A stretch of DNA of 64,000 nt from Acidobacteriota bacterium. Lineage in GTDB: Bacteria > Acidobacteriota > Vicinamibacteria > Vicinamibacterales > JACQTH01. Made by a program: the position numbers and the translations under genes. The stretch's first letter is position 1; the number at the start of each line of letters is the position of its first letter. The notes beneath the pieces were generated by a model, which was given only the letters and a program-made list of their open reading frames with translations, was not told the origin of the DNA and searched no databases. Positions 7,232-58,125 of the stretch are shown one piece after another. The stretch spans positions 3,539 through 67,538 of the forward strand of contig JACOUA010000329.1 of the NCBI GenBank assembly GCA_016178075.1. Direction: 5' to 3'.

Positions 7232-7319
7232 TCATTGCGGATTGCGGACTGCGGATTGATTCCCACCAATCAATACTCGACAATCAATCCGCATTCGGCA
7301 ACCTCCAATCCGCGATTCT
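7232..7319. repeat. Heptamer-type hairpin, word GCGGATT / AATCCGC, between coaBC start and rpoZ stop
   Basis: Left arm cattGCGGATTGCGGACTGCGGATTGATTccc. Right arm caATCAATCCGCATTCGGCAACCTCCAATCCGCgattc. Confidence 0.75.
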
Positions 7320-10957: not shown

Positions 10958-11072
10958 TACTCAGTCTTCAGTTTTCAGTTTTCAGTTTTCAGTTCTAAAC
11001 CTGCGACCTGAAGCGAAGGACGGGTCACCTTGTCAACTGATAACTGATAACTGAAAACTGATCACTACTCAG
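10957..11072. repeat. Heptamer-periodic inverted repeat, word CAGTTYT / ARAACTG
   Basis: Left arm CAGTCTTCAGTTTTCAGTTTTCAGTTTTCAGTTCT, ~35-nt spacer, right arm AACTGATAACTGATAACTGAAAACTGATCAC. Lies between the GT2 stop and the ABC exporter start. Confidence 0.85.
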
Positions 11073-15710: not shown

Positions 15711-15811
15711 CAGTTCTCAGTCATCAGTTCACAGTTCTCAGTTAAGGCGAGGACTGACAGACAACCGAGAACACCCTGAGAACTGATAACTGAAACCTGA
15801 TAACTACTGGT
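15711..15811. repeat. Heptamer-periodic inverted repeat, word CAGTTYT / ARAACTG
   Basis: CAGTTCTCAGTCATCAGTTCACAGTTCTCAGTT ... CTGAGAACTGATAACTGAAACCTGATAACTACTG, between two co-directional GT4 genes. Confidence 0.85.
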
Positions 15812-23223: not shown

Positions 23224-23308
23224 TAGTTTACAGTTCTCAGTTTTCAGTTTTCAGTTTTCAAGGCGCTGTTTCAACTGACGACTGACAACTGACAACTGAA
23301 AACTGTTC
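23224..23308. repeat. Heptamer-periodic inverted repeat, word CAGTTYT / ARAACTG
   Basis: ACAGTTCTCAGTTTTCAGTTTTCAGTTTTCA-aggcgctgtt-TCAACTGACGACTGACAACTGACAACTGAAAACTGT. The TCAGTT core pairs, with one mismatch per heptad. Confidence 0.88.
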
Positions 23309-31083: not shown

Positions 31084-31257
31084 AATTGACGATTGGCGAT
31101 TGGAGATTGACGATTGATTGTTGATTGGCGAATGGGCGGAATTGCCAGGAACGAAGGACGATTGAGAGCAATTCCGATCAGGCGTCCTTGATTCGTCAAT
31201 TCCGCGCCATCGTCAATCGCCAATCAATCCTCAATCGTCACTCGCCAATCGTCAATG
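31084..31257. repeat. ~175-nt nested hairpin, heptamer word GATTGRC / GYCAATC
   Basis: Left arm ATTGACGATTGGCGATTGGAGATTGACGATTGATTGTTGATTGGCG. Right arm CGCCATCGTCAATCGCCAATCAATCCTCAATCGTCACTCGCCAATCGTCAAT. The centre holds CGGAATTG..CAATTCCG and AAGGACG..CGTCCTT sub-hairpins. Confidence 0.88.
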
Positions 31258-33820: not shown

Positions 33821-34881
33821 TGCGAGTTGTCGTAGCCATGTCGGGCGGCGTGGATTCCTCCGTCGCCGCGGCCCTGCTCGTCGAGCAGGGGCACGAGGTC
33901 ATCGGGCTGTCGATGCAGCTCTACGATCAGCAGCAGGGCGAGGTGCGCTTTGGAAGCTGCTGCACGCTGGACGATCTCCACGACGCGCGGCGCGTGGCCC
34001 AGCGGCTCGGCATTCCGCACTACATCCTGAACTTCGAGCGGCAGTTCGACGATCACGTCGTCTCGAACTTCGTCCGCGAGTACCTGACGGGGCGCACGCC
34101 GATCCCGTGCGCGCACTGCAACAGTGACCTGAAGTTCTCGGCGCTGCTCGAGCGGGCGCGCGCGCTGGGTGCCGACGGCGTGGCGACGGGCCATTACGCC
34201 CGCGTCGCGCGCGGCGCCGCCGGCAGGCTGACGCTCCGGCGCGGCGCCGACCGGGCCAAGGACCAGTCCTATTTCCTGTTCTCCCTCACGCAGGATCAGC
34301 TCGATCACGCGCGGTTCCCGGTCGGGGACCTCGCGAAGTCCGAGGTCCGCGATCATGCGCGACGCCTCGACCTGCCGGTCGCCAACAAGCCCGACAGCCA
34401 CGAAATCTGCTTCATCCCCGACGGTGAGTACGCCGGGTTCGTCGAGCGTCATGCCGCCTCAGGCGTCGGAAGCGGGTGGATAATGAATCACGAAGGGCGC
34501 CCGCTTGGTCGTCACGACGGCATTCACCGGTTCACCGTCGGCCAACGGAAGGGGCTCGGTCTTTCGGGCGCGCATCCCTTGTACGTGCTGGAGCTTCGTC
34601 CCGAGTCGCAGACCGTCGTCGTCGGGCCGCGCGCCGCGCTCGAGAAGGTGACGCTGACCGCGTCCGGCGTGAACTGGGTCGGGGGCGCGCCTCCAGAGGC
34701 GCGCGTGACGGTCACCGCGCAGATTCGCCATCGGCACCAGGCCGCGCCCGCTTCCTGGCGTTCGCTCGCCTGTGATCGTCTCGCCCTCGAATTCGAGACG
34801 CCCCAAACCGCGATCACGCCCGGGCAGGCGGTGGTCCTGTATGACGGGGATGAAGTGCTGGGCGGAGGTTGGATCGATTAG
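33820..34881 (+). CDS. mnmA: tRNA 2-thiouridine(34) synthase
   Basis: MRVVVAMSGGVDSSVAA PP-loop, CAHCNS. TAATG overlap with the desulfurase. The ORF-track start 33298 is an upstream out-of-gene extension. Confidence 0.93.
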   Translation: MRVVVAMSGGVDSSVAAALLVEQGHEVIGLSMQLYDQQQGEVRFGSCCTLDDLHDARRVAQRLGIPHYILNFERQFDDHVVSNFVREYLTGRTPIPCAHCNSDLKFSALLERARALGADGVATGHYARVARGAAGRLTLRRGADRAKDQSYFLFSLTQDQLDHARFPVGDLAKSEVRDHARRLDLPVANKPDSHEICFIPDGEYAGFVERHAASGVGSGWIMNHEGRPLGRHDGIHRFTVGQRKGLGLSGAHPLYVLELRPESQTVVVGPRAALEKVTLTASGVNWVGGAPPEARVTVTAQIRHRHQAAPASWRSLACDRLALEFETPQTAITPGQAVVLYDGDEVLGGGWID

Positions 34882-35037
34882 GACCCGTCCCGGAATAAGT
34901 GTGCCATTCTGGGCGTCGAGGCGCCCGCCCGGCAAGGCGCGAGGAGCGCGCATACCGGGCGTATGTAAGCGACGAGCAACGAAGCCCGGCGGGATGCATC
35001 GGCGTCCAGAATGGTGCACTTATTCCGGGACGGGTCC
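34881..35037. mobile_element. MITE-like hairpin element with ~35-bp terminal inverted repeats and TTA flanks, inserted between the mnmA and trxB stop codons
   Basis: GGACCCGTCCCGGAATAAGTGTGCCATTCTGG ... CCAGAATGGTGCACTTATTCCGGGACGGGTCC. TTA lies on both sides (34878-80 and 35038-40). The core is shared with 49051-49255. Confidence 0.6.
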
Positions 35038-36009
35038 TTAGGCGGTCACTTGCGCTTCGCCGAGGTGCTGCGGGAGCCCCTCGAGGTATTTCTCGGCGTC
35101 CATCGCCGCCATGCACCCCGATCCTGCGGCCGTGACGGCCTGCCGGTACACGTGATCCTGCACATCACCGCAGGCGAAGACGCCCGGGACGTTGGTCCGC
35201 GCGCCCGAGTGCGTCAGGATGTAGCCGTTCGGATCCATCTCGAGCTGTCCGGTGAACAGCCTGGTGTTCGGTGTGTGGCCGATCGCCACGAACACGCCGT
35301 CGACCGCAAGACCGCCGGCCTCGCCGGTTGCCGTATTCGTCCACGTGAGGCCGGTCACCTCGCCCTTGTCGCCGGCGACGATGTCGTCGACGACGGTGTT
35401 CCAAAGGAACGAGATCTTCGTGTTGGCAAAGGCTTTGTCCTGCATGATCTTCGACGCCCTCAGCCGGTTGCGCCTGTGGATGACCGTCACGTGGGAGGCG
35501 AATTTCGTCAGAAACAGGGCTTCTTCCATCGCGGAATCGCCGCCGCCGACCACGGCGATCGGACGCCCTCTAAAGAAGTAGCCGTCGCACGTCGCGCACG
35601 TCGAGACGCCGTGCCCCATGAGGGTTCGCTCGCTCGGGAGGCCGAGCAGACGCGCCGACGCGCCGGTCGCGACGATGACCGTTCGGGCGCGATGGTTCTC
35701 GCCATCCGAGGTCACGACGAACGGCCGAGCCCTCAGATCCGCCGCGTTGACATCGCGAGCGATGAGCTCGGCACCGAACCGCTCGGCCTGCGCGCGCATT
35801 TCCGCCATCAGGTCCGGTCCCAGGATGCCTTCCCGGTGCCCCGGATAGTTCTCGACGAGCGTCGTCAGCATGAGCTGCCCGCCGGCCTCGGCCCCCTCGA
35901 ACACGAGCGGGTTGAGATTGGCGCGGGCGGCATACAGCGCCGCCGTCAGGCCGGCGGGGCCCGAGCCGATGACGATCACGTTGCGAAGGTCTGACATGTT
36001 CACTTTCAC
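35038..36009 (-). CDS. trxB: Thioredoxin-disulfide reductase
   Basis: [17 protein letters not shown], redox-active [16 protein letters not shown]. Confidence 0.93.
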
Positions 36010-36012
36010 TTC

Positions 36013-36116
36013 TGGCTGTCAGCTCTCAGCTGTCGGCTTTCAGCCGTCGGCCTACACCTTCATTCGAACTGCAGGTCTTGTTCTAGCTGAGAGCTGACAG
36101 CTGAGAGCTGAGAGCT
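36013..36116. repeat. Heptamer-periodic inverted repeat, word CAGCTNT / ANAGCTG
   Basis: GGCTGTCAGCTCTCAGCTGTCGGCTTTCAGC ... GCTGAGAGCTGACAGCTGAGAGCTGAGAGC, between the trxA stop and the trxB start. Confidence 0.88.
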
Positions 36117-38897: not shown

Positions 38898-39009
38898 GTA
38901 GTTTTCAGTTCTCAGTGCTCAGTTGTCAGTTCAAAGACTCCAGCCTGCGGCCGGTGTCCTTGAAAAACCACGGCGTCGGAAAACTGACAACTGAGAACTG
39001 AAAACTATT
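38898..39009. repeat. Heptamer-periodic inverted repeat, word CAGTTYT / ARAACTG, between convergent genes
   Basis: GTAGTTTTCAGTTCTCAGTGCTCAGTTGTCAGTT ... AAAACTGACAACTGAGAACTGAAAACTATTTT. Confidence 0.88.
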
Positions 39010-49017: not shown

Positions 49018-49044
49018 AGGCCGGGGTTACCCGGCCTTTTTTTT
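49018..49044 (+). terminator. Rho-independent terminator (GGCCGGG-gtta-CCCGGCC + T8)
   Basis: 7-bp GC stem followed by TTTTTTTT. Confidence 0.85.
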
Positions 49045-49050
49045 AGCTTA

Positions 49051-49255
49051 GTACCGCGTTTCATAATTACGGTGAGGCACCGAGGGCGCCGAGGCGCCCG
49101 CCCCGCAAGGCGCGAGGAGGGAGAATACCGGGAGTATTTGACCGACGAGCAACGCCGCGGAACCGGGGCCCCCAACGCGCGTTTTCCAGCGCGTTGGGGT
49201 GGTGGGGCGGGATGCATCGGCGGCCGAATGCCACCGTAATTATGAAACGCGGTAC
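49051..49255. mobile_element. Composite MITE-like hairpin element: 25-bp perfect terminal inverted repeats, TTA flanks, shared core and a nested CCCCAACGCG module
   Basis: GTACCGCGTTTCATAATTACGGTG ... CACCGTAATTATGAAACGCGGTAC, with TTA on both sides. The core GAGGCGCCCGCC..GCAAGGCGCGAGGAG..ATACCGGG.GTAT..GACGAGCAACG..GGCGGGATGCATCGGCG is shared with 34881-35037. CCCCCAACGCGCGTTTTCCAGCGCGTTGGGGTGG (~49170-49210) is nested inside. Confidence 0.6.
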
Positions 49256-49257
49256 TT

Positions 49258-49349
49258 AGGACTCACGACTCAAGGCTCATGGAGAAGGCATTCTATGAGC
49301 CATAAGACGTCAGCCGTGGGCCATGAGCCGTCAACCGTGAGCCGTGCCG
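49258..49349. repeat. Heptamer-type inverted repeat, word GAGCCNT / ANGGCTC
   Basis: GGACTCACGACTCAAGGCTCATGG ... CCATGAGCCGTCAACCGTGAGCCGTGCC, immediately upstream of the spermidine-synthase-like gene. Confidence 0.65.
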
Positions 49350-54080: not shown

Positions 54081-54181
54081 GCAGGCTCTAGGCTCCGGGC
54101 TTTAGGCTTGAGGCCTATTCCCGAGCCGGCTTCACCTGATCACGGTCAGGCCCAAAGCCACGAGCCTAAAGCCTAGAGCCA
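54081..54181. repeat. Heptamer-type inverted repeat, word AGGCTNN / NNAGCCT
   Basis: CAGGCTCTAGGCTCCGGGCTTTAGGCTTGAGGCC ... GGCCCAAAGCCACGAGCCTAAAGCCTAGAGCC. Confidence 0.8.
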
Positions 54182-54777: not shown

Positions 54778-54856
54778 GTCAGAAGTGAGAAGTGGGAAGG
54801 TAGAAGTGAGAAGTGGCTTTCTTTCTTCTTCCTTCTTCCTTCTCACTTCTCACTTC
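54778..54856. repeat. Heptamer-type inverted repeat, word GAGAAGT / ACTTCTC, between convergent Prx and VWA genes
   Basis: CAGAAGTGAGAAGTGGGAAGGTAGAAGTGAGAAGTGG ... CTTCTTCCTTCTTCCTTCTCACTTCTCACTTC. Confidence 0.85.
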
Positions 54857-58005: not shown

Positions 58006-58058
58006 GACCGCTATACGGCGCCTTACGAGAATTTCGTTCTCGTTGCCGTAGAGCGGTC
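58006..58058. repeat. Small hairpin element (GACCGCTATACGGC ... GCCGTAGAGCGGTC) with an inner ACGAGAA/TTCTCGT stem, flanked by TTA / CTA
   Basis: Read directly. One mismatch in the 14-bp outer stem. The flanks resemble the TTA flanks of 34881-35037 and 49051-49255. Confidence 0.65.
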
Positions 58059-58084
58059 CTAGGCGCGCACAGCGCGCCTGCGAG

Positions 58085-58125
58085 CCGGGGTCCCCGACGC
58101 GCGTTTTTCAGCGCGTTGGGGTGGG
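58085..58125. repeat. CCCCGACGCG-loop-CGCGTTGGGGTGG hairpin module, copy 3
   Basis: CCGGGGTCCCCGACGCGCGTTTTTCAGCGCGTTGGGGTGGG, upstream of hemE. Confidence 0.75.

Follow-up and report, generated by a model that had tools for sequence, protein, structure and literature searches.

A probable IS630-type MITE at the overlapping stop codons of mnmA and trxB in an Acidobacteriota bacterium, and the conserved core of its family

Insertion of a 157-nt element between mnmA and trxB

Analysis of a 64,000-nt stretch of DNA from an Acidobacteriota bacterium (contig JACOUA010000329.1, hereafter "the window") reveals that the convergent genes mnmA and trxB are separated by an inserted 157-nt hairpin, termed here e1 (34881-35037), which is flanked by a duplicated TTA and belongs to a dispersed family of elements that prefer the target C-TWA-G. 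We propose, with a probability of about 0.8, that e1 is a miniature inverted-repeat transposable element (MITE) moved by a transposase like those of the IS630 family of insertion sequences (IS), that it entered a C-TTA-G site at the stop codons shared by the two genes, and that its conserved core acts in cis.

The site reads ...GGATCGA-TTA/GGACCCGTCCCGGAATAAGTG...CACTTATTCCGGGACGGGTCC/TTA-GGCGGTCAC, where the slashes mark the ends of the element. TA of the left triplet (34878-34880) forms, together with the first G of e1, the stop codon TAG of MnmA (34879-34881, plus strand), and the right triplet (35038-35040) is the stop codon TAA of TrxB on the minus strand. MnmA matches the NCBIfam equivalog NF001138 with 443 bits, the alignment reaching the last profile position, and TrxB matches TIGR01292 with 406 bits and is 100% identical to a protein from an Acidobacteria metagenome-assembled genome (MAG; P0001). 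Removal in silico of e1 with one TTA leaves GGATCGATTAGGCGGTCAC / GATTAGGCGG, in which the two stop codons overlap within TTAG. The initial annotation had described a 157-nt hairpin between two convergent stops, had given the same reconstruction, and had proposed that the duplication preserved both stop codons; sequence, fold and gene profiles bear this out, and preservation of stop codons is found family-wide (see below).

Taken by itself, e1 is a near-perfect hairpin. Its inverted repeat is 53 nt long with 83% complementarity; over the first 32 nt the arms match at 30 positions, including all 21 at the tips, and the two differences are G.T wobbles on the plus strand. The terminal repeats of about 35 bp with three mismatches that had been described are therefore real, with the mismatch count amended to two in 32 nt. 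Within the window, the terminal 21-mer GGACCCGTCCCGGAATAAGTG has just two exact occurrences, which are the two inverted ends of e1 (0 expected from 100 shuffles). The single strand folds with -121.5 kcal/mol, compared with -69.2 +/- 4.0 for dinucleotide shuffles (z = -13.2; 0 of 200 as good). Open reading frames (ORFs) of at least 60 aa that overlap e1 consist mostly of flanking mnmA or trxB sequence; as genes belonging to e1 itself they are not credible. A blastn search with e1 against plasmids and phages gave no match.

The three closest TrxB relatives with enough flanking DNA (Logan contigs L110, L111 and L112; TrxB 87-88% identical) have the same thioredoxin-trxB/mnmA arrangement, with trxB and mnmA convergent, their stop codons 15-22 nt apart, and no element between them.

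Distribution and variation of the family

The family was collected in two scans. The first, with a 20-nt core pattern, matched at least 109 loci in species-representative genomes; the second used only the two boxes of the core, CAAGGCGCGAGGAG and GACGAGCAACG, 10-40 nt apart, and matched at least 120 metagenome contigs. The matches listed come mostly from MAGs of Vicinamibacterales and other Acidobacteriota, the lineage to which the window belongs according to its TrxB, and they include many contigs of one Planctomycetota MAG as well as complete chromosomes of Rariloculus and other Gammaproteobacteria; further matches listed are from Nevskia, Ectothiorhodospiraceae, Myxococcota, Nitrospirota, Longimicrobiales and others. 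The label of a MAG can be wrong for an individual contig, yet the subtypes differ by lineage, and the matches include complete chromosomes. Many copies lie at contig ends, which suggests that the repeat breaks metagenome assemblies. Full-text literature searches with the box and end sequences returned only unrelated primers, and the family is not described in a large MITE survey (PMC11602168).

The box-bearing hairpins are 78-340 nt long and have very different arms. An alignment of 70 full-length copies shows a nearly invariant centre and highly variable arms, and RNAalifold finds in it 51 pairs, 40 of them with compensatory changes, with up to four Watson-Crick pair types in arm columns. In the window the profile of family copies detects exactly two members, e1 (nhmmer E = 6.8e-47, core boxes in sense on the plus strand) and 49049-49256. 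The latter, termed here e2 (49051-49255, plus strand), is flanked by TTA at 49048-49050 and 49256-49258 and combines an e1-type core with GTACCGCG-type ends. The core of about 100 nt is 87-92% identical between e1 and e2, and the outer 30 nt are unrelated in sequence, so that the two elements have quite different terminal repeats and only the internal core in common.

Some individual copies have unusual neighborhoods. Two module-bearing copies of about 268 nt (L114, 3149-3248, and L115, 5263-5362) lie on one viral-labelled 16-kb contig (IMGVR_UViG_3300022695_000189), which could be a vehicle between hosts or a mislabelled chromosomal fragment. Another copy (L133, about 601-760) directly adjoins a sequence that resembles the 3' end of a tRNA gene, encoded on the opposite strand (GGTGCCGGAGGTGGGACTTGAACCCAC).

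Target-site duplication and gene context

Triplets of the form T-A, with a middle base between T and A, occur on both flanks in 32 of the 70 copies, and the middle base agrees in 29 of them (14 TTA/TTA and 15 TAA/TAA against 3 discordant; Fisher p = 6.8e-6). This concordance argues for a 3-bp duplication and against an extended inverted repeat or an element-encoded end. Irrespective of the triplet type, 30 of 70 copies (43%) have the same triplet on both sides, compared with 19.8% for random pairing of left and right flanks. The base logo around the duplication has C at position -1 in 32 and G at position +1 in 43 of 65 copies. These results support C-TWA-G as the target of the family, with a real 3-bp duplication; the duplication of TTA proposed for e1 is in agreement with them, and the G-N-TTAGG-like target that had been suggested comes close to the logo, the exact form being C-TWA-G. 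We rejected a duplication of TA only for the subtype of e1, as it would need two forms of the element, each with a fixed neighboring base, which were not seen. We also discarded an integron attC-like reading, since R''/R' would have the opposite orientation to TTAG..CTAA and the flanks act as direct repeats.

A copy of the e2 subtype at locus L099 (722-1167, with TTA at 719-721 and 1168-1170) lies inside a gene for an IS630-family transposase. Removal of this copy with 3 nt yields an uninterrupted ORF of 376 aa (NF033545, 277.7 bits), which aligns without gaps and with 95% identity to an intact homologue of 374 aa (P0121) across the junction HEHPK/PFVWTK. The restored frame fixes the added length and lends support, along with the statistics of the flanks, to a 3-bp duplication at CTAAG. 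The initial suggestion of a transposition-like insertion, as opposed to a local duplication, is thus upheld by the relatives without e1, the concordance of the flanks, the C-TWA-G logo and the frame restoration. The same locus (601-2240) is nested three deep: the module-bearing MITE sits within an IS630-family IS, close to the 3' end of the transposase gene, and is itself split in its apical loop by an insert of about 280 bp beginning with CAGTCTTGTCCAAATTAGC.

Analysis of the gene context with a crude GC3-based gene caller (GC3 being the G+C content of third codon positions) reveals that 27 of the 70 copies (about 39%) directly abut a predicted stop codon, three of them at both ends; as mnmA escaped the caller, e1 has to be added to the two-sided cases. 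For comparison, a position at a stop codon is found at these loci for only 5% of TWA sites overall and for 13% of CTWAG sites. None of the 70 copies lies between divergent gene starts. The orientation of the copies with respect to genes is unbiased (at stop codons 16 are sense and 14 antisense; within 300 nt the numbers are 30 and 31), and a strand-specific role in 3' untranslated regions is for this reason not supported. In two truncated copies (L033, reverse-complement offset about 392, and L037, reverse-complement offset about 1996) a host start codon follows a few bases after GAGGAG of box 1, and to judge from these sequences the remnants may serve as ribosome-binding sites; the genes behind them, read by eye, encode a putative lipoprotein (MKEIAPIVLMALVALAGC...) and a lipoyl-domain protein (INIVVPQLGESV...), one each.

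The conserved core module

The core (about 65 nt) consists of box 1, CAAGGCGCGAGGAG, and box 2, GACGAGCAACG, embedded in covarying stems. In e1, where all parts are given on the plus strand, the left terminal inverted repeat GGACCCGTCCCGGAATAAGTGTGCCATTCTGG (34881-34912), homologous to the ends of other subtypes and of IS630-family IS, is followed by the 5' strand of the inner stem or "P-stem" (34913-34932), which enters the core module; then come box 1 (34933-34946), an apical stem-loop of variable sequence with a covarying stem (34947-34970), box 2 (34971-34981), the 3' strand of the inner stem with the conserved GGCGGGATGCATCGGCG (34982-35005), and the right terminal inverted repeat (35006-35037). 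Both boxes are unchanged in at least 190 copies from several phyla, and box 1 is identical in all 92 aligned units; GC-rich as they are, they remain unchanged even in elements with AT-rich stems, down to 28% GC. Since the search was keyed to the boxes, part of their invariance in the sample follows from the way it was collected; the conserved parts that were not searched for, and the comparison of e1 with e2, are free of this effect.

The structure of the core is conserved. In 92 diverse units the P-stem, the box helix and the apical stem have 86% of cells paired, compared with 64% in column shuffles, and the covariation score is 0.498 compared with 0.147 (0 of 500 shuffles as high in either case); slid-register controls give 26-41% pairing. 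Compensatory changes occur in eight of nine pairs of the P-stem and in all six of the apical stem. In the predicted fold the boxes can pair with each other, with two tandem G.A/A.G mismatches standing between the G-C pairs (GCGAGGAG over CGACGAGC). In 64 of 70 whole elements, and in 70 of 92 modules, the box-bearing strand is the one that folds better, and mismatches of the G.U type outnumber those of the A.C type. A subtype of about 270 nt carries the module off-centre, in its left half, with a diverged second module on the opposite strand of its right half, and the module hairpin is therefore not a mere by-product of the terminal palindrome.

Comparison of the window with Rfam gave no family at the gathering threshold; with a permissive threshold no family matched the module, 13 other loci included, and e1 gave only chance microRNA-like matches at E up to 10. 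The boxes are absent from all IS630 elements examined, hence the core is not a remnant of the IS. We also considered the core as a separate MITE nested in older hairpins, and rejected this because the arm/core junction has no inner duplications or terminal repeats. The core would act in cis, with a folded single strand or an extruded cruciform as its probable form.

Element ends and the mobilising enzyme

The IS at L099 measures 1191 bp without the nested copy; its flanks are C-TA...TA-G and its end reads TA/GTGTCCTGTCCC. The 12 nt of GTGTCCTGTCCC are identical to the ends of module-bearing copies of the GTGTCC type (L167, L232), with which the ends of e1 and e2 align column for column (CC.GTC..C...AAT.A), and similar ends are found on IS630 elements of Komagataeibacter and Sinorhizobium plasmids. 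At the level of sequence, then, the ends of the family are homologous to those of IS630-family IS, and because of this homology we favor an IS630-type enzyme: most likely the mobilising enzyme is a relative of the IS630/Tc1-mariner transposases that cuts with a 3-nt stagger. The subtypes differ in their duplications. Copies with GTGT ends duplicate TA within CTAG, as do canonical IS630/Tc1-mariner elements, and copies with GTGG, GTGC or GGRC ends, e1 and e2 included, duplicate TWA.

A pattern search for long elements with A-type ends found none, and perfect ends of 8 or 10 bp with TWA or TA flanks at distances of 0.4-5 kb were limited to chance pairs, pairs of separate copies and the IS of L099. 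A tblastn search with the L099 transposase had no match in the 64-kb window, and one with a hand-written IS427-like consensus found nothing around the copies. Distant sense/antisense pairs of modules were rejected as an autonomous element, as they enclose host genes (a DEAD-box helicase, a Phd antitoxin). Of the transposase types initially suggested as worth a search, IS630/Tc1 fits the ends, with no transposase found that matches e1 itself, and IS200/IS605 is excluded because a target duplication is present.

The history of e1 could then be reconstructed as follows. As a non-autonomous DNA transposon that encodes no protein, e1 would have been cut from a donor site by a DDE transposase made elsewhere in the genome. 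The enzyme would then have cut a C-TTA-G site with a 3-nt stagger and joined both inverted-repeat ends of e1 to it, after which gap repair would have duplicated TTA. The target would have been the overlapping stop codons of convergent mnmA and trxB, which the duplication and the starting G of the element would regenerate; the insertion was harmless because both stops were regenerated, and presumably was kept for that reason. The core module may aid mobilisation, either by keeping the ends of the element close to each other or through recruitment of a factor; alternatively, it may promote retention of the element.

Alternative explanations

Several observations weigh against this interpretation. 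No transposase with ends that match e1 was found, and the 21-mer end of e1 is unmatched elsewhere in the window and in the metagenome contigs; apart from L099, no long element with matching ends, no IS630 gene and no IS427-like gene lies near any copy. The relatives without e1 have an mnmA 2-7 codons longer and TGA as the stop codon of trxB. Their junctions have thus diverged, and the check for empty sites that the initial annotation had called for documents absence of the element in three relatives, not the exact pre-insertion sequence. The copies are unbiased in orientation relative to neighboring genes, and any function assigned to the core is conjectural. Finally, canonical IS630/Tc1-mariner elements duplicate TA (PMC2170065), whereas e1 and its subfamily duplicate TWA, which is a hallmark of IS5 (the IS427/IS1031 groups) and of PIF/Harbinger (PMC2516522, PMC12730594). 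From this last point follows the rival view that the same kind of element was mobilised by an IS5-family (IS427/IS1031) or PIF/Harbinger-like transposase, with the likeness to IS630 ends being convergent or confined to the TA-duplicating subtypes. The TWA duplication and the palindromic CTWAG-like target are indeed shared with these groups and with their "Tourist-like" MITEs (PMC2516522; PMC12730594): IS1237 of the IS427 group of IS5 duplicates TTA (TAA) (PMC2516522, Table 1), and canonical Harbinger, related to IS5, makes 3-bp duplications (PMC12730594). A search of about 0.94 Mb of sequence flanking the copies, however, found no IS5-like transposase or IS with matching ends (the protein query being a hand-written consensus), and the ends of e1 and e2 align with those of subtypes whose first 12 nt equal the end of an IS630-family IS. 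In favor of the rival view, the end of IS5, GGAAGGTGCGAATAAG, has GG...GAATAAG in common with e1. On balance we regard an IS5- or PIF-type enzyme as rather unlikely.

A different view, which partly overlaps with the IS630-type scenario, makes the core module the essential object: a strand-specific structured RNA or single-stranded DNA with a function of its own (e.g. protein binding, processing or priming), for which arms and transposition are a mere vehicle. It would account for boxes that stay invariant in 92 diverse units irrespective of stem composition, for a P-stem and an apical stem that covary even where the module is off the centre of the palindrome, for the better folding of the top strand, for a box helix with two tandem G.A pairs that is possible on that strand only, and for a G.U pair that 66 of 70 copies retain (alignment A1, columns 61/139). 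To be set against it are the lack of orientation bias relative to flanking genes, the absence from e1 and its immediate surroundings of any sigma-70-like promoter or intrinsic terminator, the lack of an Rfam match, and the use of the boxes as search pattern; moreover, template switching at quasi-palindromes could maintain stem pairing without selection, and in the variable stems G.U is only modestly in excess (the P-stem has 40 versus 21, and the apical stem, with its basal pair left out, 8 versus 10). We hold this view to be tentative, with clearly less than even chances. Much the same applies to the proposal that the core is a previously undescribed structured motif (RNA, or single-stranded or cruciform DNA), itself a selected unit, that rides on IS630-like MITEs; such a unit would, equally tentatively, be spread over at least Acidobacteriota, Planctomycetota and Gammaproteobacteria, and could reflect a cis requirement of a variant IS630-type transposition (CTWAG, 3-nt stagger) or a host-level or anti-host function. 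Far less probable than any of these is a spacer that evolved in place, through local duplication or as a terminator hairpin, and was never mobile. The position of e1 is the one expected of a bidirectional terminator, and its hairpin is very stable, but there is no T-tract or terminator-like site, the flanks are duplicated, relatives lack the element at mnmA/trxB, and hundreds of related copies occupy unrelated loci in many genomes; the distribution of copies already refutes this explanation.

Comparison with known repeat families

By general features e1 is a MITE: it is small and non-coding, has terminal inverted repeats and a target duplication, occurs at many loci, and is present or absent among relatives. 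MITEs derived from IS630/Tc1-mariner are exemplified by RUP of Streptococcus pneumoniae, linked to IS630-Spn1, and by plant Stowaway. Like these, the e1 family is short, non-coding and multi-copy, forms long hairpins, and has IS630-like ends and TA within C..TA..G; its GTGT-ended subtypes duplicate TA in CTAG and so agree with the canonical 2-bp TA duplication of IS630 elements, whereas the subfamily of e1 departs from it. The TWA duplication of the e1 and e2 subtypes, the invariant internal module absent from the autonomous IS, and the spread over several phyla with very different arms set the family apart from known members of this group. It differs from IS5/PIF-related MITEs in having ends that align with IS630-type ends; no IS5-like transposase or matching IS end was found in the roughly 0.94 Mb searched around the copies.

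The e1 family resembles Correia (NEMIS), ERIC and similar bacterial hairpin MITEs, which are intergenic, often located just after genes, and can form long RNA hairpins co-transcribed with their neighbors. Each of those families is known only from a single genus or family of bacteria and shows conservation over its whole length. The e1 family, in contrast, conserves only the core of about 65 nt, and its arms differ completely between subtypes and phyla. REP/REPIN elements (with RAYT transposases) and IS200/IS605-derived palindromes carry a conserved tetranucleotide head and insert 3' of a fixed tetra- or pentanucleotide, with no duplication of the target. With them the e1 family shares the character of hairpin-forming intergenic repeats in which structure prevails over sequence. 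Unlike them, it has a TWA or TA duplication, its flanking triplets vary between copies and agree within a copy, where a fixed flank without duplication would be expected, and the modules of the ~270-nt type are inverted, not direct.

Other hairpins and repeats in the window

The initial annotation had grouped e1 with two further elements on the basis of their flanks, GC-TTA/../TTA-GG at 49051-49255 and GC-TTA/../CTA-GG at 58006-58058. Both flanks are as stated; common type with e1 is demonstrable only for 49051-49255 (e2), which has the core. The hairpin at 58006-58058 measures 53 nt, with TTA/CTA as flanks and GACCGCTATACGGC (GACCGC..TACGG) as ends, lacks the core and has no relative among the fetched loci; its ends resemble those of e2 only faintly, so that they do not establish membership in the family. 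It could be a heavily deleted derivative of the e2 type or an unrelated hairpin.

Immediately upstream of e2 (49018-49047) lies a terminator-like hairpin with a T-run, GAGGCCGGGGTTACCCGGCCTTTTTTTT, which places the insertion of e2 between a terminator and the start of the next gene. Within e2 (49151-49205) is nested a small GC-rich hairpin repeat, CCGGGGCCCCCAACGCGCG-loop-CGCGTTGGGGTGG, unrelated to the family, which recurs in the window at 58075-58124 and about 1809-1855 and is also present in L021, in L101 and at the end of L113. In e2 and other copies it occupies one and the same position within the inner stem, on the 3' strand, and it also occurs free-standing; it seems to be a second, tiny mobile or templated element. 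The window also contains many intergenic hairpins with arms of tandem heptamer-like units, e.g. (AGTTTTC)n facing (GAAAACT)n, or units ATTGRCG and GCTGWCA, at 7234-7309, 10963-11066, 15712-15805, 23238-23305, 31085-31256, 36015-36116, 38899-39007, 54084-54180 and 54778-54856. Related loci have hairpins of this type (L079, 292-1248) and versions with 10-mers (L122, 3660-4540), and they look like a separate abundant class of repeats of this lineage.

Implications

The e1 locus itself is ordinary: a MITE sits on a TAA-type stop codon and does no harm, and so illustrates why, where the genome is GC-rich, T-A-rich targets direct such elements to the ends of genes. The family stands out more, as a two-box module of about 65 nt stays unchanged inside completely different arms, in several phyla and base compositions, and is missing from the examined autonomous IS630 relatives, from Rfam and from the searchable literature. 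If the module is needed for mobilisation, this would be a bacterial MITE "tuned" by a sequence that the source of its transposase lacks; if it is an RNA, it would be a new widespread motif. The combination of IS630-type ends with a 3-bp TWA duplication would extend the presumed range of Tc1/mariner-type enzymes.

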